Positions 1 to 52,488 of a stretch of DNA of 64,000 bases are shown here, one piece after another. The position numbers and the translations under genes are program-made. The stretch spans positions 1 to 64,000 of the forward strand of contig OZ241857.1 in NCBI GenBank assembly GCA_965203315.1, read 5' to 3'. The notes beneath the pieces are model-generated. The model was not told where the DNA came from. It ran no database searches and worked only from the letters and a program-made list of their open reading frames with translations. This DNA is from Nitrosopumilus sp. (GTDB lineage Archaea > Thermoproteota > Nitrososphaeria > Nitrososphaerales > Nitrosopumilaceae). Every line of letters starts with the position of its first letter. Within the stretch, counting starts at the first letter, position 1.

Positions 1-2
1 CT

Positions 3-1175
3 ATCGGACTAAACTTTGTATTTATGTACTACTTTTTAGACGACTCTGATACATCCTATGCACTATTTGGTACAACAGTTATTGGTATAATGCTAGTTCC
101 AATAATACAAAAGATTACAGATCGATACACAAACTACAAGTATAAACCCGTAAACGAGATCGCTGACTCGGCCAAGTGGGGATATGCATCATTGACTCTT
201 ATGGGGATAATCAAAGGGCTCCAGTCTACAGGCCCATTCATGATCGCACTCGTAGTCGCAATAATAGTGTCATACAGTATAGCATCAGCAGCTGCTCCTG
301 TAGGCGCCGATCCAGTACTCTATGGCATCTTTGGCACCTCGCTTACAGCAATGGCGATGTTGAGTCTTGCAGGAATTGTTCTAAGTATAGATGCATTTGG
401 ACCAATTGCAGATAATGCAGGCGGTATAGTTGAAATGACAAAGATGGGTGAAGAAAATCGTCGAATCACTGACGAGATCGATGCGGTGGGAAACACCACA
501 AAGGCTGTGACGAAAGGATTTGCAATAGCTAGTGCAGCTCTAGCTGCATTGGCCATGATTCAAGCATTCCAATACGAGGCTGCACACATCTTTGAAGGTG
601 TACTAGATCTAGACTATGGTTTGACAAATCCTGCTGTAATAGTTGGATTACTGGTAGGCGGTCTAATTCCATTTATTATTACTGGACAATTGATCAACGG
701 AGTATCGCGTGCAGCTGGCAAGATGGTTGACGAAGTAAGACGACAATTCAAAGCAGATCCAAACATACTCGAAGGTAAATCAAAACCAGACTATGCAAAA
801 TGTGTTGATATCGCAACAGTTGCGTCTATTAAAGAACTATGGAAGCCAGCAATCATAGCGATCATCGCTCCTATAATATTGGGCATACTTTTAGGTCCAA
901 CTGCTGTCGCTGGACTCTTGATGGGATCAGTGGTTACCGGCATCTTTCTTGCATACCATCTAGCAAATACTGGCGGAGCATGGGACAACGCAAAAAAGTT
1001 AGTCGAGATGAAAGGCTTGAAAGGATCTCAAGAACACAAGGTTGCTGTAGTGGGTGATATAATTGGCGATCCTTACAAAGATACAGCAGGCCCTGCACTA
1101 AACACTGTGATCAAACTACTCAATACTATTGCAATAGTATTTGTATCTGCATTTGTCGCAATCATCTCTCTTTGA
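3..1175 (+). CDS. hppA: Membrane-bound H+/Na+-translocating pyrophosphatase (5' truncated by window edge)
   Basis: Motifs DAFGPIADNAGGIVEM, DAVGNTTKAVTKGFAI, GGAWDNAKK, GDIIGDPYKDTAGP; frame is open back to position 3. Confidence 0.95.
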   Translation: MGLNFVFMYYFLDDSDTSYALFGTTVIGIMLVPIIQKITDRYTNYKYKPVNEIADSAKWGYASLTLMGIIKGLQSTGPFMIALVVAIIVSYSIASAAAPVGADPVLYGIFGTSLTAMAMLSLAGIVLSIDAFGPIADNAGGIVEMTKMGEENRRITDEIDAVGNTTKAVTKGFAIASAALAALAMIQAFQYEAAHIFEGVLDLDYGLTNPAVIVGLLVGGLIPFIITGQLINGVSRAAGKMVDEVRRQFKADPNILEGKSKPDYAKCVDIATVASIKELWKPAIIAIIAPIILGILLGPTAVAGLLMGSVVTGIFLAYHLANTGGAWDNAKKLVEMKGLKGSQEHKVAVVGDIIGDPYKDTAGPALNTVIKLLNTIAIVFVSAFVAIISL

Positions 1176-1344
1176 ATATGTGTGAGACTACTAAATTGGA
1201 GTTTACGCACCTAAACGAATCTGTTGGTGGTGCATCGGAATAGATATTCATATTCATAAGTCTGTCTCGACTATTCTACTTTAATCGCTAGTGTCTGCAA
1301 ACTAGTCAAGCAAGATATAAATGATGTTTGCCAAAATTCCAGTC

Positions 1345-1524
1345 ATGTCGTCTACTATTTCACTACCCACATGTGATTGTTGTAATCGACACATTATGCC
1401 AAACGACAAATGTGTCAAGTTTAATTGTCCTGACTGTGGCAAAAAGCTCATCTGGAGATGTCAGAGTTGTCGAGAGTCAGTTCGATCATATGTCTGCACT
1501 TTATGTAACTTTCATGGACCTTGA
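1345..1524 (+). CDS. Small zinc-ribbon protein (DUF1610/HVO_2753-like)
   Basis: Four CxxC pairs, FNCPDCG...IWRC..CR...Y.C..C.F.GP; usual position upstream of aEF-1beta. Confidence 0.85.
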   Translation: MSSTISLPTCDCCNRHIMPNDKCVKFNCPDCGKKLIWRCQSCRESVRSYVCTLCNFHGP

Positions 1525-1530
1525 GTAAAC

Positions 1531-1812
1531 ATGGCACAACTATTGTTAATCACAAAGATTCTTCCGCAAGGAATTGAGATCGATCTAGATGCTGTAGCCG
1601 GTGCCATAAAGACCAATCTCAAAGAGGGAATAGTCATGAAGCGACATGTTAAAGAGCCACTTGCTTTTGGATTAGAGTTTCTAAAGGCAGAGTTTATTCT
1701 AGATGACAAAGAAGGTCAGATGGATCTACTAGAAGAGTCGGTACGTTCAACGCCTGGCGTCAGCGAGTTTGAAGTCTTGAACATGAGCCGAATGTCTGTA
1801 GATATGAAGTAG
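1531..1812 (+). CDS. ef1b: Translation elongation factor aEF-1beta
   Basis: KILP...EPLAFGL motif, 93 aa. Confidence 0.92.
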
Positions 1813-1820
1813 GTGATTCG

Positions 1821-3992: not shown

Positions 3993-3994
3993 AG

Positions 3995-4291
3995 ATGGCT
4001 ATACCACTACGAAACATAATACTTGACAAGATCAAAGAGGCAGGATCTCTCACCGATGCTGAGCTCTTTAAGATGATCACAAAAGACGATCTAGTGGTAT
4101 CTAGTGCAAAATTTAACAAGATGCTTTTAGATTTGGAGATCTTGGGACTGATCAACGTTACATGGATGACCAAGGACGAAAAGCGAGTAGAGATAGCTGT
4201 GGTGGATAGTAGGGTAGATGATGTTGAGATGGAGAACAAAAAGATGCTAGAGAGAGACTACGAGTCTAGTTTTCCTGGATTTGAAGGATAG
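3995..4291 (+). CDS. Conserved hypothetical protein, winged-helix-like
   Basis: Starts 2 nt after the cdc48 stop; 98 aa with natural composition. Confidence 0.75.
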   Translation: MAIPLRNIILDKIKEAGSLTDAELFKMITKDDLVVSSAKFNKMLLDLEILGLINVTWMTKDEKRVEIAVVDSRVDDVEMENKKMLERDYESSFPGFEG

Positions 4292-5179
4292 TTAGTATAG
4301 ATTATAATGAAATGCTGCATCTAGCGCTACTGCTACAAATATTATCGTCAGATATGGTGCAGTAACCTTGTATGCCTTCCAAGCAAACTCGGACGTAGGA
4401 TTGTTTGTGAGTTTGTAATGGTATACGAGCATTAGTGAACCCGACGCTGCTGCAATTATTGTATACACTAGTCCCATACCATCTGGAATGAGTCCCAATA
4501 TCAGCGAATATGGCAGCAGTATTATTGTATTTGCGAGTATATACTTTGACGTCTTGTCCATACCAACCACCACTGGCAGCATTGGGACATTTGCTTGCGC
4601 ATACTCGTCCTTGATCTTCATTGCAAGGCACCAAAAGTGAGATGGCGTCCACACAAAGACCAAAAAGCCTACAAGAAACCCTAATAGATCCATGCTTGCC
4701 GTAGCTGCTGACCAACCGGCCCACGCAGCAGCACTGCCTGCAATTCCACCAATTACGATATTGGATGTGTTTAGTCGTTTTAACCATATCGTATAAATTA
4801 CAACATACGAGAATATGCCTACCGCTATAAAGAATGCCGATACTGGATTTAGTGCAACAAAGCCGTATACGACAGATATGCAACTCAGTATCATACCGTA
4901 CAGCAGTACATGCGTTGCAGATATTCGTCCAGAAGGAATCGGTCTAGTACTGGTTCTACTCATCTTTGGATCGATGTCTCTGTCATAGTAGTGATTGAGT
5001 GCGCTAGAACCTGCTGATGCGAGTGCGCCTGCTACAACTATGTGCAGATATGCCCAATAGTCTAACGGTGGTACATTTGGTACCAACATACTTGCAGCAA
5101 ACATAGAAGTAACTGCTGTTATGACCAACAGAACTACTATGCGTGGCTTTGATATCTCGATCAGTTCTTGGACTCCCAA
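4292..5179 (-). CDS. ctaB: Protoheme IX farnesyltransferase (heme O synthase, UbiA family)
   Basis: KPRIV, NHYYDRDIDPKMSRTSTRPIPSG, WTPSHFW motifs; many TM helices. Confidence 0.92.
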   Translation of the reverse strand: MGVQELIEISKPRIVVLLVITAVTSMFAASMLVPNVPPLDYWAYLHIVVAGALASAGSSALNHYYDRDIDPKMSRTSTRPIPSGRISATHVLLYGMILSCISVVYGFVALNPVSAFFIAVGIFSYVVIYTIWLKRLNTSNIVIGGIAGSAAAWAGWSAATASMDLLGFLVGFLVFVWTPSHFWCLAMKIKDEYAQANVPMLPVVVGMDKTSKYILANTIILLPYSLILGLIPDGMGLVYTIIAAASGSLMLVYHYKLTNNPTSEFAWKAYKVTAPYLTIIFVAVALDAAFHYNLY

Positions 5180-5291
5180 TCTGATATCGTCTCTCTTGGA
5201 GGCATTTAATTTGTTTCACTATCTAGAATCATGTGTCTTTGGCACCAAATTTCCAAAGGAATAAGTATATCGCTACTATCGCTACAGTTGT

Positions 5292-6089
5292 ATGAGTAAT
5301 TGGGATCTCATGATGCCAGGTATGGGACTCACTGCCATCGGTTTGGCTGGTCTCACTATATCATATGCAGATATTGCACACACCTTTATTGATGGAATGC
5401 ATGCCTTGACGGGCTTGACCATGTTTATAGGGCTGATTTTTTTGTCCGTCGGAATCTTGGACGGTGGTATCTCGACTAGCAATAGAGCCAAAGCCACAAC
5501 ATTGGTGATACTATCGATCGCATTAGGATTTGGAATGTTTGCGTTTACGATGAATACATCCAACTATACAGTAACACTAGCTGGAATATTGATGGCTATT
5601 GCATTTCCATCCATACTGATCGCATACGTTGCGATGAAACATCCAAAGTTTCTCAAACCTGTGGGATCTATTGCAGGCATTGCAGGCGCTACTGGCATAA
5701 TAGTGTGGGTTGCGTTTGGATTTGTGAGTCCAGATACATATATGATTCCACAAGCTATAGTAGTTCCTGAAGAACCACAAGAGATAGAGGTAGAGATAAT
5801 CGGTGAACTCTTTACAGTTGAGGTGCTCCCCGAATCGTCGATCAGTGGTAACCCTGGATATGATCCCGAAGATATTACCGTTGTACAAGGAGATGGGATC
5901 GAGTGGTTCAACAATGATACACTGGCTCACACTGTGACTAGCTTTGAGGACTTTGGTGAGACATTTGACTCTGGTCTGTTTGATGCAGGCGGGACATATA
6001 CACTAGTAACTACTGAGATGGATCCTATCACGTACGATTACTTTTGTAGCGTTCATCCATGGATGCGAGGAACTATAACGATCGAATAG
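5292..6089 (+). CDS. Membrane-anchored cupredoxin (blue copper) protein
   Basis: About 5 TM helices, then WFNND..AHTVT and YFCSVHPWM type-1 copper ligands. Confidence 0.88.
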   Translation: MSNWDLMMPGMGLTAIGLAGLTISYADIAHTFIDGMHALTGLTMFIGLIFLSVGILDGGISTSNRAKATTLVILSIALGFGMFAFTMNTSNYTVTLAGILMAIAFPSILIAYVAMKHPKFLKPVGSIAGIAGATGIIVWVAFGFVSPDTYMIPQAIVVPEEPQEIEVEIIGELFTVEVLPESSISGNPGYDPEDITVVQGDGIEWFNNDTLAHTVTSFEDFGETFDSGLFDAGGTYTLVTTEMDPITYDYFCSVHPWMRGTITIE

Positions 6090-6091
6090 TA

Positions 6092-6481
6092 TTGCAACTA
6101 GTAATATCTCCCAAACAGTGTGAACAGTTAAAGCAGCATGCCATGTCCCAAGCACCAAACGAATCATGTGCTCTTTTGTTTTGTCGCGGTGATATCATAC
6201 ATGATATATTTCTAACAGAGAATGTGTTGAACTCGTCGACTAGATTCAGTATATCTCTAGAGCAGTTACGTCTAGCATACAAAATTGCAGAGACACAAAG
6301 TTTTGATACGGTTGCAATATTTCACTCTCATCCAAACTCTATCGCGTATCCGTCAAAGACTGACGAACAGTTTATGTACGTCAATCCTGTTCCGTGGTTG
6401 ATATACTCTGGTGTTACTTGCAAGTTCAAGGCATTTATTCTAGATGTTGACGTATTGGAGATTCCACTTGTTGTATTATAG
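6092..6481 (+). CDS. JAMM/MPN (M67) metalloprotease
   Basis: PNESC and HSHP....PS.TD JAMM motif; start (TTG 6092) estimated. Confidence 0.85.
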   Translation: MQLVISPKQCEQLKQHAMSQAPNESCALLFCRGDIIHDIFLTENVLNSSTRFSISLEQLRLAYKIAETQSFDTVAIFHSHPNSIAYPSKTDEQFMYVNPVPWLIYSGVTCKFKAFILDVDVLEIPLVVL

Positions 6482-7197
6482 CGTACAAGTGTGATTTGTG
6501 TACTCTTGAGTTCTAGTACAACATATCAACGAAAAATAAGTTTCGACATAAATAACATGATCAAATCTTTATGAATCAAAATGTAAGGATCAAACTTTTT
6601 TTATATTTCAAGATGGAGTTTTTAATTAATCTATATCACAGTTGATCATACTGATTCATTGTTTGTGTCAGGACTCGTTTTTGGCGATATATTTTTTGAC
6701 ACATCTTTTAGCGTAAGTAACTCTAGCAATTCCAGATCTGTTCATTGCAGTTACAATAATCGATATAAAGTATACAGAACTGAGATTTTACCACACTCAC
6801 TATAATTCTCTGATAATGGAATTATCTAACCCAATAACCATTTTATGTAGACGTAATTTTCACAACTTTTCAACTCGTTCTAGTTTTCCTTTACTCTTTT
6901 ATCTCTAGATCTCTCATTTTGGAAATCCTTTAGATCTCTCTATTTCACCTAATTTGCGTAGTTTTGGAATAGATTTTGGGGGCAGGCTGTATTCTAGTTG
7001 GCAATGTAAGCTAGAGTTCAAGATTCTGGTAGACTACTTCAAAGCGGAAACCGATCATCTGGAATGCAGATTACATGTTCTACTCTTTTTGCTCAAAATC
7101 ATCAACTCTGTCAACATTTCAATTTTTTCAAAGTCTGAGATTCTACAGCGCTATAGTGGCGGATACAGTTTATTTATGCCATGGAATTAGGGTTATC

Positions 7198-7455
7198 ATG
7201 GAGATTCATGTATATGATACATACGTCAAGGCAGCTGACGGCCATACGATGCATTTTGATGTAATCACCGGTGAAAAAGACCATGAAAAAGCCATCCAAT
7301 ACGGTAAAGAATGGCTAAAGTCCATTGGTGAAGAGAATGCTACAATAACCCAGAATGAATGCCAATTCTGTCACTCACAAGGTGCCCCAGCTCCAGTTGA
7401 AGAGTCGATCAAGAGAGACGGCTACTTTATACAAAAGATGGAAGGTTGTCCATAA
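7198..7455 (+). CDS. DUF2024 family protein
   Basis: HVYDTYV....G.TMHFDV, CQFCHS and MEGC signature. Confidence 0.85.
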   Translation: MEIHVYDTYVKAADGHTMHFDVITGEKDHEKAIQYGKEWLKSIGEENATITQNECQFCHSQGAPAPVEESIKRDGYFIQKMEGCP

Positions 7456-7807
7456 TTTTTTAACCATTCTCTTTTTTTAGTTTTGGCAATTTATGGATAT
7501 TATACTTTATCCGATGAATATTTTGAGTTAGTGGTTTGGGATTTGTACATAAACATCTCTCAATCACACTAGTGGTGTGTTTCATTCGTGATTACAAACA
7601 TAATACTGTTATGTGCACATTTACAGCTCACAAACGTTATTGTTCAGATCCATAAATTTCTACAGTTGAGAGTAATGTATCTATTATGCCTAGCGAGAAA
7701 TTATAGACAAACGTAAAGTTAACCATGAGCGTAATTAAAACAGTCATACAAAAGTCTAATAAAAAATCGAACTGGGAAAGTACGTATAATTGATATCTGA
7801 CGTGAGA

Positions 7808-8899
7808 CTATGTGAAAATATCTTCTAGTCTATCCTCATTTTGTGCGCGACGTATCTCCATTGCTATGCGCCTTCCCACGCCAAATGTTGTTCCGTACTG
7901 GTACTTTGTATATGGAGTTGTAGTACCTACTATGGGATTTCCGGGAACACGTAATGATACATCATACACTACTAGATCTAGATCTTTGGTTATCACACTC
8001 TGTAGTGAGAATGGTCCAATTATGCCTGGTGGATACTCTCGTCTCACGGCGTCTACAAACTTTTCTCCCATCTTGAAGACTTTTTCTAAAAGTGACTCTC
8101 TAATACTAGCCGGAGTGTGCCCTACTTCTATATTTTGTATATCTATGTCTATCTGCTCTTGTTGTCTTGCTGGTAGTGCATTATAATCATGAATATTTGT
8201 CTGTAGTCTACGTTCTATGCCAATAAAATCTACATGATCAGATATTGGCGTATGAAAAAAGTTAAAGTTCATGTATGTACCTATTGCGAGTTCTTCAATG
8301 CTTGAATTATCTAGATCACTACGTGATATTGTACCGCTCTTTATCTTCATCTCTGATTGTTCCTTGTATTCCTTGTATGATGAGACTGTAAAGAATGCAC
8401 GTTCTAGTGGTCTGTTCTTCTCTTGGACTTTAACTATGCATGGTTTGTTGATCCTCTTTGGATCTTTTAAGATCTTTGGATACTTTATCTTTGCCTTCTT
8501 TAATAGATAGTACTGTCCCTTTTCTGCTGTTCTCTCTTCGGCCTGAAAGAGTCTTCTGTTACCAAAAATTGGAACTTGAAACGAGTCTTCGATAGTCTTG
8601 TACCCTACATATGCAGTAAGTGCACGATGTGGAATGATTACAGTGCTTGATTCACGCAATTGCTTTTGGATCTTTTGTGATGCAATATCTCGAAATTTAT
8701 CCAAGATCAGTATCTTGTCTGCAATTCTATCAAACCTCTGATATGGTGTCTCTCTTCCTCTTTGACAGATTACTGTAGTTTCAAAGTTCTCATCTTTGGC
8801 GCCATCCATAACTTCCAGTGCAGAGTGACTTCCGAGAACACCTATTCTAAGATCATTATATTTCGACAAGATGTCTCTGATCTTAGACCTTTGTATCAT
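7808..8899 (-). CDS. purP: PurP-family formate--AICAR ligase (ATP-grasp)
   Basis: IGVLGSHSAL, GAKDE, FGNR, GIIGPFSLQ, GRRIAMEI motifs. Confidence 0.9.
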   Translation of the reverse strand: MIQRSKIRDILSKYNDLRIGVLGSHSALEVMDGAKDENFETTVICQRGRETPYQRFDRIADKILILDKFRDIASQKIQKQLRESSTVIIPHRALTAYVGYKTIEDSFQVPIFGNRRLFQAEERTAEKGQYYLLKKAKIKYPKILKDPKRINKPCIVKVQEKNRPLERAFFTVSSYKEYKEQSEMKIKSGTISRSDLDNSSIEELAIGTYMNFNFFHTPISDHVDFIGIERRLQTNIHDYNALPARQQEQIDIDIQNIEVGHTPASIRESLLEKVFKMGEKFVDAVRREYPPGIIGPFSLQSVITKDLDLVVYDVSLRVPGNPIVGTTTPYTKYQYGTTFGVGRRIAMEIRRAQNEDRLEDIFT

Positions 8900-9514
8900 G
8901 TCTTGTGATGTGTGTATTGGATATAATATAGCTATTTATGTTTGGTTTAGAAGTATTTTTGTATTTTGCATAATATTTAGCAATTAAAGTGTAATTTAGC
9001 ATAAATGTTCGTGCCCACAACCCTAGGTTTTTGGTTATTTTGTATAGATGATGTAGCAATTGAAAATTTAATTCATATTTTAATTTTTAGATTTGAAAAA
9101 TATTTTTAAAAAATGGAAACAACATAGTTGCATATCAAAGATTCAAAAACACACTTTATCGATTGTAATGGAAAGACCTTGTTGCAGCAGTGAACACAAA
9201 CATGTTAATTCAATACTACAGTAATGTATTAAACAAGATCAAAAAACAAAATGAGATGGAATTAGGTGCAGAGTATATTGAATTAATAGATAATCTGTAC
9301 AGAAATAAGATCAAATTACACAATGGTATGACGTTAGGTCAACATATCGTTTAGGCACGAAAGATAAACTTTTTATCAAAGATCATGCATGACATCTATG
9401 ACAATCTAACATCATACCAATCCTTGTGGTGTTTCATCTTTTGAGCTAGCATCTTACAAATCACAGTATGTATAATACAAAAAGTATATATAATGATTCA
9501 ACATTATTATTATT

Positions 9515-9688
9515 ATGTCTGCTGTTATCATGACCGGTCAAAATGATCAATACGAATATCCGTCACCCCGACGTACTAATCTAGATCATATAAATGGGTA
9601 TTTGATCGAACTTGTCAAGTACAAAGAAATTAAATTAGAATCTAGACCATTGAATCATCTGATCCTTGTGTCCAAGACATTCAGATAG
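9515..9688 (+). CDS. Small hypothetical ORF (57 aa), possibly the 5' half of a frameshifted gene continuing into 9697-9885
   Basis: ATG 9515 follows AAAAGTATATATAA (BRE/TATA-like, about 9480-9493); translated by eye. Confidence 0.4.
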   Translation: MSAVIMTGQNDQYEYPSPRRTNLDHINGYLIELVKYKEIKLESRPLNHLILVSKTFR

Positions 9689-9696
9689 ATTATGCA

Positions 9697-9885
9697 GTGT
9701 TTAATCCTGTGTATGTAGAAAAACTTGATGATGATGAAGAACAGGTAATGTATGACTCAAATTATATGATTTTAAATAAACCGTATCATGTAGTTTGGAA
9801 TGGGAGGGACTTTTGGTTTATGAAAACCGAGTCTGGTTTAGAAGGATACAGAAATAATCCTGTGGGGCCTAAGCATGAAATTTAA
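9697..9885 (+). CDS. Hypothetical protein
   Basis: Overlaps next ORF; member of an AT-rich co-oriented cluster. Confidence 0.5.
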   Translation: MFNPVYVEKLDDDEEQVMYDSNYMILNKPYHVVWNGRDFWFMKTESGLEGYRNNPVGPKHEI

Positions 9886-10078
9886 AGCATCATTGCGGGA
9901 TCTTTCTATGGAACTCGAAACAGACAAAAACACTATTCATGAGTTTCGACCATGTCGGGGTATTTTATATGAAGAGAAGAGACTACTTCGTGATTCTATC
10001 ATCTATATAATTCATATGGGCAAAAATGGAAAACCTACTCGTCGTGAATTGAAGGTGAAAAATAATGTTAGCGCTTGA
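9875..10078 (+). CDS. Hypothetical protein
   Basis: Overlaps both neighbours, operon-like. Confidence 0.45.
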   Translation: MKFKASLRDLSMELETDKNTIHEFRPCRGILYEEKRLLRDSIIYIIHMGKNGKPTRRELKVKNNVSA

Positions 10079-10514
10079 TGAACCAACTAATCAAATTACA
10101 AATATGGGGTATATTGAAACTATTCCTCTTAAACCAATAATCCCTAGTTTTTACAAACTTGAAGACGGTACAATTATAAGCGTATTATGTAAACTCACTC
10201 ACATACTAAAAGCCAGTACTGGTACAAAACATATGAATTTAATAATTAATGATGAGGTTCATGTCTTCGTGCCTCCTGAAAAACGGATAGTACCTAACAA
10301 AATGTCAAAAAACCCCGACAATATTATTAGTAAAGATGTTACACATGTCCCAATAAAAGAAGAGTTTAATGTCTATGACATAAACGCCGACTTTACAATT
10401 AATGTTAAAACATTAGTGAGTCAAGTTGTTAAAACAAATCAAACCAATTTACGGGGAGAGCCAATTTATAAAGTGAATTTACACCCACTTATACAAATTA
10501 AACAAAAAGAATAA
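10065..10514 (+). CDS. Hypothetical protein with an internally duplicated beta-rich unit
   Basis: FYKLEDGTIISVLCKLTHILK resembles VYDINADFTINVKTLVSQVVK...GEPIY. Confidence 0.7.
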   Translation: MLALDEPTNQITNMGYIETIPLKPIIPSFYKLEDGTIISVLCKLTHILKASTGTKHMNLIINDEVHVFVPPEKRIVPNKMSKNPDNIISKDVTHVPIKEEFNVYDINADFTINVKTLVSQVVKTNQTNLRGEPIYKVNLHPLIQIKQKE

Positions 10515-10622
10515 TTTAGTTAGGCGATTACGTACATGTCTCCGCCGTGGTGCTCAGAAAAATAACTCTGGTCAAATTTTCTTAACACTGCATTGTATTG
10601 CTCAATTTCTATACAGAATACC

Positions 10623-10994
10623 ATGGTTCAAAAATACGAAGATCTCTTTCAGGCCTACAGAAGCAGTGAACGCAAACAGATACGTGATAAGATCATAGAT
10701 ATAAAGATGGTTTTGATTCACAAACACACAAAAGTACATGCGGCAGAAATCTTTGAGGTTAACGAACTAACAATTTACACTTGGATCAACAAGTACGACA
10801 AATATGGAATTATGGGTCTAAAAGACCAACCTCGTTCTGAAAGACCACCAAAAGTATCAGATGAAATACTCGAAAAGTTGATGGATGAACAAAAACCTAT
10901 ATTTCCGTTAGAGATGAAAAACATAGTCAAAAAAAAAAAGAGACAGGGTAGACTATCATGGAGATGGTTTACAATACAGGATGAAAAATCTTGA
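10623..10994 (+). pseudogene. IS630/Tc1-family transposase, N-terminal HTH fragment
   Basis: AAEIFEV...TIYTWINKY...GIMGLKDQPRSERPPKV; breaks at an A-run near 10930; no DDE domain follows. Confidence 0.8.
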
Positions 10995-11018
10995 TCGATC
11001 TCCCAAAGTTGTTTAAAC

Positions 11019-11131
11019 GAATCTCTTAGGTTTACGTGGTGTGGTATTTCACAAGACTCTTTCTGTATTTCCATTATGGGATCTTGTAGTGTTTTCTGTA
11101 ACCTTTCTATCCCACGTAAACCAAAAGATCC
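11019..11131. mobile_element. MITE family A, copy 1 (about 113 bp)
   Basis: TIRs ATCTCTTAGGTTTACGTGG ... CCACGTAAACCAAAAGAT; interior homologous to other A copies, reverse orientation. Confidence 0.85.
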
Positions 11132-11206
11132 AAACGATTTTTTGTACTACACGAGATCCAAATAATCAAGTAAACGATATATCTACAAAACATCCGAGAT
11201 AAGTAG

Positions 11207-12277
11207 ATGCGTGCCCTAGTTTATGATAAGTATAGTTTTGATGATGACTATGCCAAGATTCTAAATGTAGTTGATATTCCCGAACCGGAACCAGGTCCTG
11301 GAGAGGTAGTCTTTACCGTACGCGCAGCTGCTCTCAATTATGACGATATATGGGGAATGCGTGGCAAGCCTCTTGCTGTACCGTTACCACATATCTCTGG
11401 GACAGATGCTGCAGGTGAGGTCACTGCAGTGGGCAGTGATGTCCAAAATATCAAAGTGGGAGATCGAGTAGTATCTCATGGAAACATCTCTTGTCGAATA
11501 TGTAGAAATTGTACGTCTGGACGTGAGTTTGACTGTAGATCTAGAATGATCTGGGGATTTGAGACCGGTCCTCTCTGGGGCGGATACTGTGAAAAGACTC
11601 ATCTACCTGAAGTAAACGTAGTCAAGATTCCGGACAATATATCCTACGAGTCAGCTGCTGCGGCATCTATGACTTTATTGACTTCATGGCACATGCTGGT
11701 TGGTCGAGCAGAGATACGGCCTGGTCAAGTCATCTTGATAATGGGTGGTGGCTCTGGAGTGGGCAATTATGGAATACAGATAGCCAAACTCTTTGGTTGT
11801 ACTGTTATTGCTACTGCCAGCTCTGACAAACTAGATCAATGTATGCATCTTGGGGCAGACTATGCTGTGGATCATAGAAAGGATGACTGGCACAGTGCTG
11901 TACGCAGTATTGCAAAGAATATTCCGAAACCATATGGAGGCGTACGTGGAGTTGACGTCATCTTTGAGCATATTGGTGGTTCACATTGGAACAAAGGGCT
12001 TACACTACTCAACTATGGCGGAACCATAGTTACGACAGGTGCCACAACTGGATATGATGCATACACTGATCTACGTCATATATTCTTCAAAGGAATCAAT
12101 ATCTTTGGATCCACTCAAGGGACACGTGCTGAATTGGAGCAAGGTCTCTACTGGATGTCTCAAGGAAAGATACGATCTGTTATCGACTCTGAATATACAC
12201 TAGATCAAGCTGCTCTAGCTCATACGAGGATGCTAAGAGGTAAAGGCGTATTTGGCAAGATAATAATCAGACCATAA
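11207..12277 (+). CDS. Zinc-binding MDR-family dehydrogenase/reductase
   Basis: GroES-like domain, structural Zn CRICRNC...C, GGGSGVG Rossmann motif. Confidence 0.9.
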   Translation: MRALVYDKYSFDDDYAKILNVVDIPEPEPGPGEVVFTVRAAALNYDDIWGMRGKPLAVPLPHISGTDAAGEVTAVGSDVQNIKVGDRVVSHGNISCRICRNCTSGREFDCRSRMIWGFETGPLWGGYCEKTHLPEVNVVKIPDNISYESAAAASMTLLTSWHMLVGRAEIRPGQVILIMGGGSGVGNYGIQIAKLFGCTVIATASSDKLDQCMHLGADYAVDHRKDDWHSAVRSIAKNIPKPYGGVRGVDVIFEHIGGSHWNKGLTLLNYGGTIVTTGATTGYDAYTDLRHIFFKGINIFGSTQGTRAELEQGLYWMSQGKIRSVIDSEYTLDQAALAHTRMLRGKGVFGKIIIRP

Positions 12278-12572
12278 ACAAGAGTTATCTTGAAAGTTAA
12301 ATCTATGGCAAATCACCCATCTGATATCATCTTGACACAAAATCTTGATCGCATGACCAGTTCTTATGTAATGCGGAGAGTCACTTATCTGATATTCAAA
12401 GAGTTAGGATAGATACCCACAGTTTGACATGCAATAACAATGATAGTGTACGAGTTTACATCAATTGACGATATACGTGTAGAATGTGAATTCGTGTGAA
12501 GGTTGGACGAATCAAAAATACGATGCAATGTGCTAGAAAAGAAACGTCTACGTGAACAAATTGTTCATTAGG

Positions 12573-12580
12573 CTTAAATA
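12573..12580 (+). promoter_or_regulatory. Candidate TATA box (CTTAAATA) with no real gene downstream in this orientation
   Basis: Begins 35 nt upstream of the ATG embedded in the left repeat; the aEF-2 TATA lies 31 nt upstream of its ATG. Confidence 0.55.
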
Positions 12581-12585
12581 CAAAC

Positions 12586-12610
12586 TATTGATGTGAATAT
12601 CAATAACATG
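12586..12610 (+). repeat. Left copy of 25-bp inverted repeat flanking the S-layer gene (putative recombination site)
   Basis: TATTGAT-GTGAAT-ATCAATA-ACATG; exact reverse complement of 17724-17748. Confidence 0.9.
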
Positions 12611-12824
12611 TATAATTGTACAGGTTGTACAAGTGCTTGTAAAGTTATCTGACATGACCTTTTACAGTCTATTAGTCTACGTACCTACTTCACATCTCTT
12701 GTATCAAGTATCTTGTGAATGAGTAATATTGTATAATGCAAGAGTCAAGAATGAAGGAGTAGAGATCATCGTATATTGTCATTGACACTGTATGTAGATA
12801 TCACTATGCATAGTTGTATCATAT

Positions 12825-12840
12825 AAAAAAAGAAAAAAAA
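12825..12840 (-). terminator. Oligo-T terminator of the S-layer gene
   Basis: T8-C-T7 on the minus strand, 8 nt after the stop codon. Confidence 0.7.
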
Positions 12841-12848
12841 GGTTTGAA

Positions 12849-15800
12849 CTAGTTTACAGTTATTGTTGTTGTCTGTTGTGGAGATAGTGCAGTTGGTATA
12901 GTCAACGACTCCCATGCAAATACGGTAATTGTGTATTCACCGGATGCTGTTGGTATCCAAGACTGAGATGGACTAAACGACTGAGATGGTGTTAGTGAAC
13001 CATCAATCCAAGACAGAGATACTGTAACGCCATCGCTATCTTGAATTTGTACCAAGTATGCAAATGGCTGGTCTTTGTCTTGTGTGTTTGTCAAATCTGC
13101 AGTGATCTGGACTTGTTGATCTATTGATACTGTACTGAGTGTTGTACCTGTAGAGTCTACTATTCTCAACGACTCGATCTTTACTCGTTCTAGAGGAGGT
13201 ACTATTGTTCCTATTATGGTGGTTGCAGTGATGTCTTCAGAGTCGCCTGTATTGTATGGAGCAGGTAGAGTGTTGTCGCTGTACTTTGCAGTGACTGTGT
13301 CTCCTTCTTCTGTGGATAGTTTGTGACCGCCTGATTGGACAGAGAGTCCAAAGAATACAGTACCTTCAAAGATACCACTTGCTGGTTGAGTCTCTGTTAC
13401 TGTAAGGGTTATTCCACTAGGTGCACTAGAAGACCATACTTTGACCTCAAAGTTGTCTGCAGATTCTGGATTCAAGTTCATGTCGGGATCGATTACACGT
13501 AGTACGCCTGTAGCTGTAGCAGGATAACTTGCTTCTAGCCACTGAACCTCACCAATGTTCCAACGGATTAGAGCAGACTTGCGAACAGTCTCTTCGTCAG
13601 AGAACTCGAATGATACCTCGAGTCCGTCGTCGTTGTCTGTTGGTAATAGTCCATCGGTTGGTCCTTTACAGCTATCACATGTACGACCTGTGACGTCTTT
13701 ACCGTTCTCTCCTGTGGAATCATCACCGTCTGCGTCGTACGAGAATCCTGTCAGTATTACTTCACCTGTAAAGATACCAGTGTTTGTACCTGTCTCTACG
13801 AGTTTGTAGTTTTTAATGTCGTCGGATCTTGTAGCAACACGCACTGGATATGGATCCGCACCAATCTCGTCTACTTGGTTTGTGTTTAGGTTGTGATCAG
13901 GAGCTGTTACAGTAATGAATACCTTGTCGGTCCAACTGTATACGCTTTGATCTAGTTCTATTGTAGCACCAAAGTTTGATGTGAATACCGTTCTGTCGAT
14001 ATCTTCTGTATTATCACCTACAAAGTCTGCACCTGATGGTCCATAGTCGGTGTATTCTAGCTTGATCTCTTCACCACGCTCTAGTCTGTCGTTGTCTATG
14101 GCCTTGGGAACAGATATGACCACTTGGAAGATACCTGTGCTAGGACCAGTCTCTCGTAGAGAACCTGGTTCTGCATCGAATATACCTTCACTCAGATTCT
14201 TGGTACCTGCGTCCGAGTCCCACTTTATCAGATCAAGTGTGTATGTTTCGCGTGTACCGCTGTCTAGATCAAGGTCTGGATCGATGAGTGTTACGATCAT
14301 GTCCGAGCCTATCACATATACAGACTTGTCTGTCTGTAGAGCACCGTTTCGTAGATCAAAGGTAGCAGAGTCTGTGACTGTACGTGGGTTACCAGAAGCA
14401 TCTGTTGTATCGTTGTACTGTACGGTAAGGATATCACCTTGTAGGATGCATGTACGGCTTGTTGTACCGTCAGCTATTGTTCTACTTGGACAGTCACTGC
14501 CACTTGGCCCATCTATGTAAGATAGATCAAAGCTTACTTCGAACACTCCAGATTCAGGAGATGTCTCTGTTAGAGCACCAAACTTTGCTGGCTCTGGACA
14601 TTCACCACCACTATCTCGTGCATTAGTGTACTTTAACTCTGCCAAGAGATATGCTGTCTGTTTCGTTGTCTTTTCAGCGTCTGTAGCATCAGTATATGCC
14701 TGTAGTGCATCATCTCGTATCTGTTTTAACTTGCTGATTGCATCGCTTGCGTTTGAATCTTCGCCACCAGCATGACCTATTGCACACTCGTCACCACTGC
14801 GAGAGATCGTGACCTTTACTGGACCATTTCCGTCCTCGTCTTCGATCTTGTCCTCACCTGTAGGATTCAAGTTGTAATCTGGGTCGTTTACTTGAACATA
14901 GACTTTGACTGTACCTAGTGGAAGAGGTTCAGGAGGATTCTTCATGTCCAAGAATCCTGAAGAGCCTGGGTCTGTATCAGTGCCGTATGGAACTGGATAT
15001 ACAGTTCTATCTAGCGATACAGAGCCTGTACTTGCACCAATCGATGCAGAGTCACCAGCTGTGACTATCTGACCAGATGCATCTCTAAAGTCTAGATATG
15101 TTACGCCAATATCTTTGCCGCTTGTAGGTGTGTTAGGGTTTCTCGTGTTTACTGTATCGTCGTCATTAAAGTTGCATACTTGTTTTGGTATAGAAAATGA
15201 ACCTGTAAAGACTCCTGTACTGGATCCGGTCTCTTGTAGAGTGAATCCGGTTTTAGCGAGTCCGTTCTGAATGTTATTATCTAGGTCACATGCGCCAGAT
15301 TTCCATCTCTCACCACCAATGGTTACTTCGAGTAGCATTCCTAGTGATTTGCCACCTGGTAGTAGAGACTTGTACTTGATACCAGCTACATTGGTTACAC
15401 TCATGCCTACTTGATCTCTATCTGTGTCATTGTGGTTACTGTCCATCACTACCGTATAGGTATCAGCACGATCAGGATCTGTATTCAGATCAGAGTCCTC
15501 TAGTGTGATTACGACATTGCTGCCTACACTGTATGTCTCTGCGTTCAGAGATACCACACCACTAGAGGTTGCGATATCTTGTTGATCAGAGACCACAGCC
15601 ATGTTGCCGTTCGAGTCTATGTCTGCATAGTTTACTCGAGCATCAGAGCCTGTAATGTCCTCAAAGGCGATGAATTTGACTTCGTTGCCTATTGGGGTGA
15701 TGCTTTCGTATATGAAACCAGTTTTGATTAATTGCTTAGCTTCATTTTCAACGAATTGGTCATGTACCATAACATCAAGTTGGTTTACCATAACGTACTC

Positions 15801-17726
15801 TAGCGTTCCTGTAAAGGTGCTGGTGTTCTCGCCAGTCTCTTCTACCTCGACTCGTATAATCTGGTTTGCAACTCTCTCATCTGCTTGTGCACCATCATTA
15901 TAGAACCCATAGGAGAAGAAATCTGAAACTATTGGATATTCCTCGCCTCCTACAAATTTAAAGGGACTTGGGAAGTGTAGTGATAGTAGAAGTGGTGTAT
16001 TATCGTCTACGTTGACTTTATTTGATAGTTCTGCACCGGATATTGAAAAGTATGCACCCATATACCCACCACCACCAGCGGAATGAGCAGCTTGGACACC
16101 CCACGATGTCATGTCTCTGAGGTCATTAGTAAGAGAGTATGGGAAATCATTATTAGTAGAGCCCTTAAGAGATGCACCATAAATCACATTCCTGTCATTG
16201 TCGAGTAAGACAAGAGTGCCATCTATGCCATCTATACCAAAGATACTATAATCATAGTTGAATAGATTGCGACCTGTAAAGTTACCAACGCCGTTAAGCC
16301 CATCGTCATTGATTGATTTACGAAGATCTCCAAAAGTACCGAATGGAATAGCAACCGTGTTGACAGTAGTATTAGTAGCGACTGATATGATACCTCGGTG
16401 ACTATCATCGACGGTGTAATTTAGTACGTATATGCCACTTTGACTGGAATCTGTCGAATATGTTGGAGTGTTAATCGATCCAGTATTGTATCCATAGATT
16501 GTAATTGTATCAGTAGAACTGACACCGTCCTTTAGTGTATGTGGATCACCCGTCATGAATATTGGAATTCTTGCGTCTGGATTGGTTATCGTTTGATCGT
16601 CTTCTGCATCACTGTTGAGGTTTTGATCTGCATCGACTATGGTTAGGTCTATCTTTTCACCAGAGTTCCATGTACCGTCCTTGATATCGAGGTCTACTGT
16701 AGCAGTTGTGAGTCGTACGTTTACAGATACAGTTTCATCACTATACGTGATTTGAGTATTTTGACCGCGTGGTGCATTATCTTGAACCATTATGGGAGAC
16801 TTGTCATCGTTGGTGATGGTAAATACGCCCGTGTTCGGACCAGTCTCTTCAAAGATGTAATTTGTAGTACCCGATTCTAGTTGTAGTAGATCATTAGTGT
16901 CACTAGATCCTATGTCATCTATGCTAAAGCTACACTTGTCATCTTTACAACCAAGATTGGTACTAGTTGGCATGATCGGTCGCTTTTCAGATTCACGAAT
17001 CTTGCTAGAATTATTATCGTACATGTATGTTGGAACACCACCATCTACTGCATATCTCCAGACATCTTTAGTTGTCGGATCTATGTTTAGTATATGGTCA
17101 GTTATCTTTACGTGTACGTGAGAGTTTCTCGGATATGATGTTCTGTCTAGTGTAAGATCATTGTTTACAGAGTCATCATATGTGATCGATATTGTTTGTG
17201 GCGATCCAGCCTTGTGATACACTATGTTAAAGGTATCATCGAGTTCAAAAGACTTTACTATATCAGTGGCGTTTCCAGTCTTCTCGCCAATAGTAATGCC
17301 TGCTTGCCTAACGATATTTTTCACTTTAGGCTGACCATCATCAGTAGAATGCCACAAATTCTGGGCATCGTCAAATGAAGGAGTATTGCCATCAGGATCA
17401 TCAACCGCTCTAAAGTACCCATACCAATTGCCATCAGTGTGTCTATGCATCTTTAGCGTTGTGTCATCAACAGTTACACGAGGCTCAGCATCGTCTGCAT
17501 CACGGATCAACGGATCATTTACAATTACTTGCACTATCTGTAGTCCACCAAAGGTGTTCTCGAACCTAGAGCCATATCCATTTGGATCAGCAGCTGAGAC
17601 GTATAGGTTTGGTGTCGACTGGGCGTAAACTGGCTCCATGCTCGGCATAGCAAAGGTCAGTCCGCCTGCGACCATTATTGTCATTAGTATTAAACTAGTT
17701 GTTTTTCGTCCTATTTCGTTATTCAT
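12849..17726 (-). CDS. Thaumarchaeal S-layer protein (about 1625 aa, tandem Ig-like domains)
   Basis: Signal peptide MNNEIGRKTTSLILMTIM, NLYVSA, repeated ETG.NTG.F.G and D.D.N motifs, C-terminal QPFAYLVQIQD...WIP...FAWES; start moved to ATG 17726. Confidence 0.9.
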   Translation of the reverse strand: MNNEIGRKTTSLILMTIMVAGGLTFAMPSMEPVYAQSTPNLYVSAADPNGYGSRFENTFGGLQIVQVIVNDPLIRDADDAEPRVTVDDTTLKMHRHTDGNWYGYFRAVDDPDGNTPSFDDAQNLWHSTDDGQPKVKNIVRQAGITIGEKTGNATDIVKSFELDDTFNIVYHKAGSPQTISITYDDSVNNDLTLDRTSYPRNSHVHVKITDHILNIDPTTKDVWRYAVDGGVPTYMYDNNSSKIRESEKRPIMPTSTNLGCKDDKCSFSIDDIGSSDTNDLLQLESGTTNYIFEETGPNTGVFTITNDDKSPIMVQDNAPRGQNTQITYSDETVSVNVRLTTATVDLDIKDGTWNSGEKIDLTIVDADQNLNSDAEDDQTITNPDARIPIFMTGDPHTLKDGVSSTDTITIYGYNTGSINTPTYSTDSSQSGIYVLNYTVDDSHRGIISVATNTTVNTVAIPFGTFGDLRKSINDDGLNGVGNFTGRNLFNYDYSIFGIDGIDGTLVLLDNDRNVIYGASLKGSTNNDFPYSLTNDLRDMTSWGVQAAHSAGGGGYMGAYFSISGAELSNKVNVDDNTPLLLSLHFPSPFKFVGGEEYPIVSDFFSYGFYNDGAQADERVANQIIRVEVEETGENTSTFTGTLEYVMVNQLDVMVHDQFVENEAKQLIKTGFIYESITPIGNEVKFIAFEDITGSDARVNYADIDSNGNMAVVSDQQDIATSSGVVSLNAETYSVGSNVVITLEDSDLNTDPDRADTYTVVMDSNHNDTDRDQVGMSVTNVAGIKYKSLLPGGKSLGMLLEVTIGGERWKSGACDLDNNIQNGLAKTGFTLQETGSSTGVFTGSFSIPKQVCNFNDDDTVNTRNPNTPTSGKDIGVTYLDFRDASGQIVTAGDSASIGASTGSVSLDRTVYPVPYGTDTDPGSSGFLDMKNPPEPLPLGTVKVYVQVNDPDYNLNPTGEDKIEDEDGNGPVKVTISRSGDECAIGHAGGEDSNASDAISKLKQIRDDALQAYTDATDAEKTTKQTAYLLAELKYTNARDSGGECPEPAKFGALTETSPESGVFEVSFDLSYIDGPSGSDCPSRTIADGTTSRTCILQGDILTVQYNDTTDASGNPRTVTDSATFDLRNGALQTDKSVYVIGSDMIVTLIDPDLDLDSGTRETYTLDLIKWDSDAGTKNLSEGIFDAEPGSLRETGPSTGIFQVVISVPKAIDNDRLERGEEIKLEYTDYGPSGADFVGDNTEDIDRTVFTSNFGATIELDQSVYSWTDKVFITVTAPDHNLNTNQVDEIGADPYPVRVATRSDDIKNYKLVETGTNTGIFTGEVILTGFSYDADGDDSTGENGKDVTGRTCDSCKGPTDGLLPTDNDDGLEVSFEFSDEETVRKSALIRWNIGEVQWLEASYPATATGVLRVIDPDMNLNPESADNFEVKVWSSSAPSGITLTVTETQPASGIFEGTVFFGLSVQSGGHKLSTEEGDTVTAKYSDNTLPAPYNTGDSEDITATTIIGTIVPPLERVKIESLRIVDSTGTTLSTVSIDQQVQITADLTNTQDKDQPFAYLVQIQDSDGVTVSLSWIDGSLTPSQSFSPSQSWIPTASGEYTITVFAWESLTIPTALSPQQTTTITVN

Positions 17727-17748
17727 GTTATTGATATTCACATCAATA
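17724..17748 (-). repeat. Right copy of 25-bp inverted repeat; contains the S-layer start codon
   Basis: Plus strand CATGTTATTGATATTCACATCAATA. Confidence 0.9.
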
Positions 17749-18016
17749 CCTTGCAAGTTGGACGTGATTACTTATTTCAGGCACTTGCATGTGGGTTCAG
17801 TTAATCAAATTGTCCCTTTTTGAACAAGTCAATACAATGCTGGTTGTTAGAGATATCATGTTCCCAAGCTTGCTGATTGATAATACGTATCATATGTGAT
17901 GCTTATTAGCAGCAACATATCCATTCATGGCTTCTACCAATCACTCAATAAAAGTTTGGGAGCTCCATATCCCTAATCACCATCATAAAATGTACACAAC
18001 TGAAAAGTTTGATAGT

Positions 18017-18313
18017 CTAGAACTCTGGCGGTCTTTGGATGAACACATTACATACTAGAGCATCAGTCTTTGTATCTCTATACTGAACATTGCATGATAC
18101 GAATTTTCCTTTTAGTGCCTGTTCCAACTGTTCTGGTGTGGTCTCTTTGTATTCCGGACTATTGGGATTATCGATCTTGGAAATAATGATCTTTTCAATC
18201 TTGCCATATTCATCATTGTTGTCTTTGCGTACATGACTTATCATCATCTCAAATACATCTCCTCCAAGTATCTGTAAAACAGGTCCGCCAATACCGTCGC
18301 CCATAAAACACAC
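18017..18313 (-). CDS. Conserved hypothetical protein
   Basis: Directly follows mqnD on the same strand. Confidence 0.65.
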   Translation of the reverse strand: MCFMGDGIGGPVLQILGGDVFEMMISHVRKDNNDEYGKIEKIIISKIDNPNSPEYKETTPEQLEQALKGKFVSCNVQYRDTKTDALVCNVFIQRPPEF

Positions 18314-18316
18314 TAC

Positions 18317-19141
18317 TCATTTTGCTATGCGTAAATCAAATTTTGGAACAAGACCTTGTTTTTGTCCCATCTCAAAGAGTCGTCTTATGGATTCGTTACC
18401 TGAATCTCCCATGTTTACCGTGACCTTGTTTACGTACATTCTTACAAACCTTTCTATCAGATCTTTTGGTTTTCCACGTGAATACTGCATAGCGTATTCC
18501 AGAGCCGCATCCTCGTGGTCTAACCCAAACTGTATAGACTCTTGCAGATATCTATCAAACTTTTGTATTGTGGCATCACCGAGGTCGGTTCTTATTACAT
18601 TTACACCGAGCGGAACAGGAAGACCTCCTGTCTCTTTATTCCACCACTGACCGACATCTAGAATCTTTGTATTTCCTTCTTGATTGTAAGACAATTGTGT
18701 CTCGTGAATTACTAGCCCTGCATCAACAGTACCTTCTCTTACTGCTTTTGGGATCTCACTAAAGTTCATCTCAATATAATCAAATTTACCAATCATCAGC
18801 TGTAATAGCAAGAACGCAGACGTCATCTTGCCTGGTATAGCTATACGCGAACGCGATAGATCATTTCTACTGATATTGCTTCTTGCTGTCACTATTGGTC
18901 CATAACCTAAACCAAAACTTCCACCACTATTCAAAATTGTATATCCTGTAATATACGCGCAAGCGTGGACAGATACTGCTGTTACATCCAACTCTGGACT
19001 CATAGCCTTTTTATTCAAATGTTCGATATCTTGGATCACATGTCGTACCGTGAAATCGGGCGACGTGACTTTGCCTGTAAACATTCCATAAAACATAAAC
19101 GCGTCATCCGAGTCTGGTGTGTGTCCTACAGTTAATTGCAT
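18317..19141 (-). CDS. mqnD: 1,4-dihydroxy-6-naphthoate synthase (futalosine menaquinone pathway)
   Basis: GHTPDSDDAFMF, GYGPIV, AGLVIHE, GLPVPLG, MYVN motifs. Confidence 0.88.
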   Translation of the reverse strand: MQLTVGHTPDSDDAFMFYGMFTGKVTSPDFTVRHVIQDIEHLNKKAMSPELDVTAVSVHACAYITGYTILNSGGSFGLGYGPIVTARSNISRNDLSRSRIAIPGKMTSAFLLLQLMIGKFDYIEMNFSEIPKAVREGTVDAGLVIHETQLSYNQEGNTKILDVGQWWNKETGGLPVPLGVNVIRTDLGDATIQKFDRYLQESIQFGLDHEDAALEYAMQYSRGKPKDLIERFVRMYVNKVTVNMGDSGNESIRRLFEMGQKQGLVPKFDLRIAK

Positions 19142-52443: not shown

Positions 52444-52488
52444 AGTTTGTCATACTCTTGATACAATCTAAATATCATCATATACACA

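Follow-up and report, generated by a model that had tools for sequence, protein, structure and literature searches.

Our study of a 64,000-nucleotide stretch of DNA from a Nitrosopumilus sp. assembly (GCA_965203315.1, contig OZ241857.1, positions 1 to 64,000; hereafter the window) suggests that its S-layer gene lies in one of eight S-layer cassettes that are probably invertible, flipping of which would set a fixed promoter in front of either the gene or a 14-codon stub open reading frame (ORF). At the level of sequence, we showed that the cassettes have an architecture in which inverted repeats bracket a segment whose orientation would couple the promoter to the gene or uncouple the two. We regard the system as a strong candidate for a multi-locus inversion switch, of a kind that would be new for archaea. 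The assembly consists of seven contigs (2.47 Mb); the window corresponds to C1:1-64000 and its S-layer locus is referred to as locus A.

The S-layer gene, its inverted repeats and the promoter outside them

The S-layer gene of locus A is bracketed, together with its terminator, by two inverted arms of 35 nucleotides (nt) each, which a repeat search of the window found to be 91% complementary (32/35) and 5103 nt apart. The perfect 25-mer within them, TATTGATGTGAATATCAATAACATG, has exactly two matches in the window, one on each strand, where none would be expected and where none of 100 shuffled sequences contained a match. Each copy contains a 7-6-7 palindrome, TATTGAT-GTGAAT-ATCAATA, and terminates in an ATG. 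The ATG of the right copy starts a 1625-amino-acid (aa) ORF, the S-layer gene, which begins MNNEIGRKTTSL and shares this N-terminus with S-layer genes of relatives, and that of the left copy opens the stub ORF. The terminator, an oligo-T run of the form T8-C-T7, is found 8 nt past the S-layer stop codon (TAG, 12851-12849), inside the bracketed segment, and a comparable T-run follows the S-layer stop in relatives. The perfect 25-bp inverted repeat and its imperfect extension, the coding sequence (CDS) and terminator enclosed by it, the two terminal ATGs and a TATA box present outside the left copy only, where it faces the 14-codon ORF, had all been described in an earlier, sequence-only reading of this DNA, and that description proved accurate in each of these respects (Table 1).

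Outside the right copy, the equivalent position has the sequence CCAACTTG and holds no TATA box. For comparison we used five S-layer loci of same-genus relatives, three of which (L010, L011 and L012) include the gene start. Upstream of MNNEIGRK, all three have the palindrome GGACAATTyGTyCA, a TTAGG or TTAGC motif and a TATA box, either CTTAAATA or CTTTTATA, and their TATA-to-ATG distance, counted from the sequences, is 27 nt, in a stretch ending ...A(T)CAATAAC (the ...ATCAATAACATG leader). Since the same layout precedes the S-layer genes of relatives, the element in the left flank of locus A is the S-layer promoter in its canonical, ancestral form. In none of the three relatives was the leader found again, in inverted orientation, downstream of the S-layer gene. 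Judged by this layout, the promoter to the left of locus A faces the stub and not the gene, so that locus A is in an OFF arrangement, as the sequence-only reading had it. Its further prediction, that a flip would place the gene behind the TATA box, also held, since such a flip would rebuild the canonical arrangement, one already present at three sister loci (D, F and G); the ON arrangement matches the promoter-to-ATG spacing of the relatives exactly. In archaeal promoters, a TATA box 27 nt from the ATG points to a nearly leaderless mRNA. By analogy, the spacing suggests that the S-layer mRNA is nearly leaderless and that the repeat lies between the TATA box and the start.

The 14-codon ORF, which includes the self-complementary motif TTGTACA-GG-TTGTACAA, is probably not a real gene. 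The DNA of the stub is kept at the stub end of other cassettes, and the module of about 210 nt to which it belongs, between the repeat and the S-layer terminator, occurs only in repeat-bracketed cassettes; the homology of non-bracketed copies (the 3' end of copy I, and copy J) ends at window position 12821, short of the stub module. An Rfam search of positions 12000-18400 returned no matches.

The identification of the gene as an NmSLP-type S-layer gene of Nitrosopumilus is supported by the match of its predicted protein to PDB 8c8k_A ('cell surface protein', 1734 aa; E=0, 1196 bits, in four stretches), in agreement with the S-layer identity proposed from the sequence alone. The protein has a signal peptide and the conserved start MNNEIGRK, as do the genus orthologs in L010-L012, and S-layer homologs were found in 54 of 60 other genomes of the genus, the best with 50-67% identity over the matched parts. 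A Pfam search of the protein gave no match, and an NCBIfam search gave a sub-threshold match to an anammox S-layer family and nothing else.

About 12 long S-layer paralogs were detected in the genome by tblastn, and they are mosaic. The N-terminal half (alignment columns 100-800) has a mean identity of 32-71% and a synonymous divergence (dS) of about 0.5-2.0, and the C-terminal half (columns 800-1779) an identity of 74-99% and a dS of 0.11-0.24, which suggests that gene conversion may homogenise the membrane-facing half. In the part of the published structural account of the Nitrosopumilus maritimus S-layer that was available to us, the protein is Nmar_1547, 8C8K is among the deposited S-layer models, and the chain runs from an N-terminus on the outside to a C-terminus towards the membrane, with N-terminal domains 1, 2 and 4 outermost and glycosylated (PMC11153153). 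The half that varies between the paralogs is thus the one that is outermost and glycosylated in N. maritimus. The same part of that account describes the S-layer as the outermost barrier and an ammonium-gathering lattice, and suggests that the glycosylated, outward N-terminal domains act as a phage shield (PMC11153153).

Eight cassettes and the history of their orientation

A genome-wide scan for further copies of the 25-mer, suggested in the sequence-only reading, was rewarding: it gave 16 matches with up to three mismatches and none for the reversed control. A looser search yielded 26 matches, of which 18 lie next to an S-layer start or a stub, four are other-strand reads of the same palindromes and four are unrelated. 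The 18 sites, a count that includes a duplicate on contig C5, pair up in inverted orientation at about nine loci, with 5.0-5.3 kb between partners. Eight bracketed cassettes have intact ORFs of 1591-1675 aa (A, B, C, D, E, F, G and the pair H/I). Each measures about 5.1 kb and holds an S-layer CDS, a terminator and the 210-nt stub module between inverted copies of TTGAT-N6-ATCAATAACATG. Their outer flanks are of two types: the P (promoter) flank carries GAACAAATyGTTCA...TTAAATACAAACT, and the N flank has no TATA box and is more diverged than P. Every locus has one flank of each type. At A, B, C, E and H/I, P is directed towards the stub and N towards the gene (OFF); at D (C1:825965-831022), F (C5:36352-41559) and G (C5:50325-55472), P is directed towards the gene and N towards the stub (ON). 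Homology between loci continues beyond the repeat, for about 35-45 nt where the promoter lies and for about 15-30 nt at the N flank.

Repeated inversion in the evolution of this gene family can be strongly inferred from a comparison of the flanks, the coding sequences and the repeats themselves. The N flanks at opposite ends of the cassettes are related to each other: that of A, directed towards the gene, is identical at 26/36 positions to that of G, which adjoins the stub end there, and that of D, directed towards the stub, at 25/36 positions to that of I, directed towards the gene. Random 36-mers gave a mean of 9.5 and a maximum of 21/36 in 20000 draws, and N-versus-P comparisons gave 7-19. 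Among the P flanks, that of C (towards the stub) and that of G (towards the gene) are identical at 36/36 positions. We considered whether both arrangements could stem from the independent decay of one of two equal promoters and rejected this, because the N flanks form one homologous family of their own at opposite cassette ends, for which promoter decay alone is insufficient. In a tree built from the 2.9 kb of conserved 3' sequence (six of seven inner branches starred; such trees are open to distortion by gene conversion among paralogs), D is sister to an OFF-type clade, F to C, and G to E. Each ON locus is thus sister to OFF loci, which implies at least three state changes.

The spacers between the arms point in the same direction. 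At six of the eight loci, the 6-nt spacer is the same in both copies and differs from that of the other loci: GTGAAT at A, GGAAAT at B, GAGAAT at C, AGAAAC at E, GAGATT at F and GATAAT at H/I. Six matches were reached by 2/40320 permutations, and the five matches among seven loci that remain without H/I by 2/5040. Since the common stub and N flank indicate that the loci descend from one bracketed ancestor, locus-specific but internally matching spacers argue that the two copies within a locus have repeatedly undergone exchange. The arms themselves are well kept, with ATCAATAACATG in 17/17 sites and TTGAT in 15/17, and they are intact at all three N-to-stub sites, which are without constraint from a promoter or a gene. 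For the N-terminal half, the ratio of nonsynonymous to synonymous divergence (dN/dS) is 0.24-0.48 among pairs of OFF loci and 0.28-0.39 among pairs of ON loci; for the C-terminal half, the corresponding ranges are 0.23-0.33 and 0.20-0.35. As the OFF ORFs are intact and have a dN/dS like that of the ON loci, the 'silent' cassettes have been maintained as working genes. The sequence-only reading had called the gene of locus A a candidate for phase variation, which means fast and reversible switching; the comparison supports repeated inversion in the evolution of the family, and switching of that speed and reversibility is something we infer.

The S-layer expansion and its repeats are, by sequence comparison, specific to this lineage among the genomes searched. 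When the motif was sought in 40 relatives with up to one mismatch, only the present genome had multiple copies (18 matches), and six others had single scattered matches. The motif combined with WATAA was also sought in 185,579 species representatives, in a scan that may omit this genome; the one match, which is unrelated, lies in a Legionellales metagenome-assembled genome. No recurrent neighbour genes were found within 7 kb of the cassettes. Metagenome loci sought by way of the neighbouring ADH gene had a best match of 81% aa identity that is not syntenic with the window, and none of 47 metagenome loci longer than 9 kb had an S-layer gene, Mqn, SIS, EF-2 or orf149 beside the ADH gene.

Some copies depart from the common layout. 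A promoter-stub site at C1:1804964 and an N-flank-gene site at C1:1845277 have the spacer GATAAT in common and are found on the same strand at a distance of 40 kb; the tree joins the 3' parts of H and I as sisters, and I has a 3' end like that of the non-bracketed copies. The best explanation of this arrangement is a putative 40-kb inversion between H and I, through homologous recombination between the conserved 3' halves of opposed S-layer genes. Copies H (C1:1810513-1810570, minus strand) and J (C6:25060-25112, plus strand) have a third type of promoter, CTTTATATGGCAC-(G)9-11-ATAAATTAATAACATG, and no left repeat arm, and both their ORFs are broken near codon 134-137, that of J by an IS1595-type transposase insertion. 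Paralog K (C1:738658-743100, minus strand) has a different signal peptide that contains a G12 tract at C1:743037-743048; its ATG frame is offset by one base from the 1589-aa main frame, G11 would join the two frames, and a copy of an IS66 insertion sequence (IS) is located just upstream.

Table 1. Positions of the elements of locus A in the window
Feature	Position	Strand	Remarks
Palindrome TGAACAAATTGTTCA, upstream promoter element (P flank)	12553-12567	+	Relatives have GGACAATTyGTyCA before the S-layer gene
TATA box CTTAAATA	12573-12580	+	Adjoins the left copy on its outer side; distance to the ATG at 12608, 27 nt
Left inverted-repeat arm	12581-12615	+	Perfect 25-mer at 12586-12610 (+); core TATTGAT-GTGAAT-ATCAATA
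Stub ORF, 14 codons, Cys-rich, MYNCTGCTSACKVI*	12608-12652	+	Starts at the ATG of the left copy (12608); probably not a real gene
Stub module, about 210 nt	12611-12824		Between repeat and S-layer terminator; only in repeat-bracketed cassettes
Oligo-T terminator, T8-C-T7	12840-12825	-	Within the bracketed segment
S-layer gene, 1625 aa, signal peptide	12849-17726	-	Match to PDB 8c8k, identity profile, dN/dS
Right inverted-repeat arm	17719-17753	-	Perfect 25-mer at 17724-17748 (-); its ATG, 17726-17724, is the S-layer start codon
Point of divergence of contigs C1 and C5	17740-17756		Spacer positions 17740 and 17741 are the first to differ; unrelated after 17756
N flank, TATA-less decayed relative of the promoter flank, CCAACTTGCAAGGTA	17754-17790	-	Homologous to the N flank of locus G

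Present-day orientation, candidate recombinases and rival explanations

In the mechanism that we propose, recombination within the pair of 25-35 bp repeats would turn the 5.1-kb cassette around, and the orientation of the cassette would decide whether the fixed promoter drives the S-layer gene, the ON state, or, in the OFF state, the 14-codon stub. The repeats would be the sites of a trans-acting site-specific recombinase, with the 7-6-7 core as its putative target and the locus-specific spacers confining recombination within a locus; such heterospecific spacers would prevent recombination among the sixteen sites of one chromosome. The palindromic core and the spacers matched within loci resemble, by analogy, the site of a tyrosine recombinase. 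Switching may be ongoing and may serve to vary the cell surface, against viruses for instance. As a possible alternative route of flipping, the general machinery could recombine the repeats through their short homology.

Several observations weigh against this proposal. Of 11 public sequencing runs listed in a search, seven contain part of the stretch, none of these being an RNA run, and the Logan contigs of four runs, from three studies, were compared with it; such contigs drop rare variants. Read evidence for both orientations of locus A, which the sequence-only reading had named as a check, was not found: in 4/4 runs, only the assembled state was found at the right junction, with no joints or strand-switching contigs at locus A, and both orientations were seen only between paralogous loci. 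The assembly itself forks at the right repeat, between C1 and C5. No recombinase adjoins any cassette, no serine recombinase was found in the genome and no XerA scored above the cut-off. The two tyrosine recombinases described below look like integrases of mobile elements, and homologs occur in 15 of 60 other genomes of the genus, all of them without the repeat system, so that rec1 may be no more than such an integrase. The ON loci D and G, finally, have spacers that are unequal between their two copies.

In all four of the runs compared, a contig from the right flank passes through the repeat, which has the locus-specific spacer, and stops at 17710; these contigs enter S-layer-type and not stub-type sequence by 14 nt, which is below the bridging threshold of 31 nt. 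The left-flank contigs end at 12582 in 4/4 runs, which we read as a break in the assembly graph, because the 30-mer at this point is common to two other P flanks. The flanks in the runs have no differences from the window (100% identity), and the runs may therefore stem from the same culture and not be independent of the source of the assembly. An assembly join at either repeat had been named in the sequence-only reading as a finding that would refute inversion, and such a join is in part present: C5:1-17756 and C1:1-17756 match at 99.977% and are identical through 17739, and past the fork C5 runs on into otherwise unique sequence. The fork may be a population variant recombined at the repeat, or an assembler artefact. 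An artefact is made plausible by C4, an unplaced cassette contig with 97-98% identity to parts of cassette A. This 6.7-kb contig represents the interior of an S-layer cassette interrupted by an IS66 copy. As seven other loci have the same architecture, the overall conclusion is independent of the C1/C5 join.

Two tyrosine recombinases were found in the genome, of 542 aa (rec1, C1:1467141-1468769) and 545 aa (rec2, C1:412064-413701), with 39% mutual identity. The rec1 gene lies between a NERD-domain gene and a HerA (DUF87)-NurA pair (region C1:1467044-1470422), and about 70 nt upstream of it, from C1:1467044, is a copy of the S-layer promoter with a degenerate repeat, an element of 51 nt with 90% identity to locus E over its P flank and repeat. 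A visual reading found no such element upstream of rec1 homologs in three relatives (0/3). No tRNA genes were found near rec1 or rec2. A similar promoter copy precedes a 371-aa ORF at C5:289125-290323. IS110/DEDD transposases, the family of the Moraxella Piv invertase, have 14 matches in the genome. One copy lies about 460 nt from locus C, which by a rough estimate is compatible with chance. We set aside a Piv-like IS110 element as the invertase, since the one subfamily with readable ends targets a poly-G promoter element and not the repeat.

A more far-reaching version of the proposal, which we put forward only tentatively, would see here programmed antigenic variation of the S-layer at many loci: eight cassettes flipping independently, a single trans-acting recombinase (with rec1 as the best candidate) confined by the spacers, and a 'contingency genome' with 38 G/C tracts, probably driven by viruses acting on the outward N-terminal domains. 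At the other extreme, the cassettes could be an evolutionary relic, in which an old inverted duplication of promoter and leader was followed by a few accidental inversions and nothing flips today, the OFF cassettes being expressed by read-through or weakly from the N flank, or serving as conversion donors. The assembled orientation found in 4/4 runs and the lack of an adjacent recombinase fit this explanation, as does the evidence of homologous recombination between paralogs, namely the contrast in dS between C-terminal and N-terminal halves and the putative H/I inversion; moreover, two genes of the window that lie upstream of the S-layer gene share its strand, which makes read-through possible. 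We nevertheless consider a relic unlikely, since it must account for arms that are intact at three ends without promoter or gene, although the adjoining N flanks have diverged, for the spacer identity at six of eight loci, which needs repeated interaction of the copies, for at least three state changes among eight loci and for OFF ORFs that are every one intact and under purifying selection.

It is also conceivable that TTGAT-N6-ATCAA is only a regulatory palindrome, an operator for a transcription factor that was copied along with the promoter, the inverted pairing being a by-product. The half-palindromic leader of relatives, TTAAG-N6-ATCAATAACATG, and the similar promoter and palindrome-like elements before two non-S-layer genes (C1:1467044 and C5:289125) would agree with this idea. 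We think it improbable, as an operator explains neither the same P- and N-flank subtypes at opposite cassette ends, nor a perfect site at TATA-less ends that have only a stub, nor the co-variation of spacers within loci. Even less probable, in our view, is that the orientations were misassembled or that the cassette is a 5.1-kb transposon with terminal inverted repeats that inserted either way round. The fork of C1 and C5 inside the right repeat after a common 1-17739, the unplaced cassette-internal contig C4 and the presence of about nine dispersed copies bounded by inverted repeats could each be read in this sense. However, the short-read contigs of 4/4 runs reproduce the N flank, the spacer and the S-layer-type junction, though only for 14 nt beyond the repeat. 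A transposon is contradicted by homology that runs on outside the repeats, which are therefore not the ends of the repeated unit; in addition, the other ORFs of at least 50 aa in cassette A are, going by the ORF list alone, short (50-156 aa) and overlap the S-layer CDS, and the insertion target of the one IS110 subfamily differs from the repeat. Taking these explanations together, we favor invertible cassettes as the account of locus A and its sister loci.

Other genome features, known inversion systems and significance

The genome contains 38 homopolymeric G or C tracts of 9-17 nt despite a GC content of 39% (for example, at window positions 37531-37544 and at C1:110477, C1:568990, C1:1793541 and C5:81629). 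Most follow immediately on the 3' side of TATA-like boxes, in a small number of recurring contexts, and several precede the genes of large secreted proteins (506 to 2280 aa). By their sequence context they are candidate slipped-strand 'contingency' promoters; some of their lengths could be homopolymer assembly errors. The genome is also rich in IS elements. Two families are present in the window (52479-54030 and 61917-63635), an IS5-like family (DDE_Tnp_4, apparently frameshifted) with about 12 copies of 96-99% identity and an IS66-like family with about six, and a further IS66-like family of about ten copies and an IS110 family with about 13 matches are found outside it. A direct repeat of about 520 bp with 80% identity (48599-49114 and 49524-50039) has its copies 925 bp apart.

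Inversion of S-layer genes is known from bacteria, and in mechanism the proposed switch is most similar to the slpA/slpB and sap systems. In Lactobacillus acidophilus, inversion of about 5-6 kb switches the slpA/slpB S-layer genes relative to a fixed promoter, and the Nitrosopumilus cassettes are similar in that an S-layer gene would be expressed or silent depending on the orientation of a segment with respect to a fixed promoter. In L. acidophilus, however, two opposed genes swap behind one promoter at a single locus of a bacterium and have long homologous 5' regions, whereas here there would be a promoter per cassette, a 14-codon stub as the alternative, and eight loci in an archaeon with repeats of 25-35 bp that have a palindromic core. 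The sap system of Campylobacter fetus has about eight S-layer paralogs with conserved and variable halves, and inversion selects the expressed one; its single promoter lies on the invertible segment, the conserved 5' regions are long and the process is largely RecA-dependent. A paralog family with one conserved and one variable half is common to both organisms, but in C. fetus it is the promoter that moves, whereas here the promoter would be fixed and the gene would flip, so that several could be ON at once (three in this assembly). The defining feature of sap and slp, one promoter common to alternative full-length genes, is thus absent from the present cassettes, each of which has its own promoter.

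In having many loci and an enzyme acting in trans, the proposed system resembles that of Bacteroides fragilis, whose capsular-polysaccharide promoters lie at many invertible loci served by the trans-acting serine recombinase Mpi. In both cases the ON/OFF inversion loci, putative in Nitrosopumilus, are dispersed and concern surface structures, and the individual loci have no recombinase of their own, so that an enzyme working in trans is implied. The segments that flip in B. fragilis are short promoters, and its repeats are alike between loci, whereas in Nitrosopumilus a 5.1-kb gene would flip and the spacers are locus-specific; Mpi is moreover of the serine recombinase class that was not found in this genome. 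Variants of lox and FRT have inverted arms of 11-13 bp and heterospecific spacers, and the repeats resemble them in having inverted arms around a 6-nt spacer, with partners that match and loci that differ. The arms of the putative site are shorter (5-7 bp), and its right arm doubles as gene leader and start-codon region. In its layout, TATTGAT-N6-ATCAATA with a matched spacer at six of eight loci would correspond to the core site of a tyrosine recombinase.

In archaea, a long-read screen found 12 putative invertons in 42 data sets, in Euryarchaeota and Crenarchaeota only (10.1101/2023.03.11.532203). Like the present study it concerns putative archaeal inversions, and in the portion of the text available it mentions no S-layer gene and no ammonia oxidizer. 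A literature search over titles and openings of abstracts found nothing relevant on S-layer inversion in ammonia-oxidizing archaea, Nitrosopumilus or archaea at large, and this preprint was the only report on archaeal invertons that we found. Programmed inversions are almost unexplored in Archaea, as the available part of the same preprint indicates (10.1101/2023.03.11.532203). If our interpretation is true, eight switchable S-layer variants would amount to surface variation of the type known from bacterial pathogens, in a free-living or enrichment-grown archaeon, and the locus-specific spacers may show how many recombination sites one chromosome can tolerate without being scrambled.

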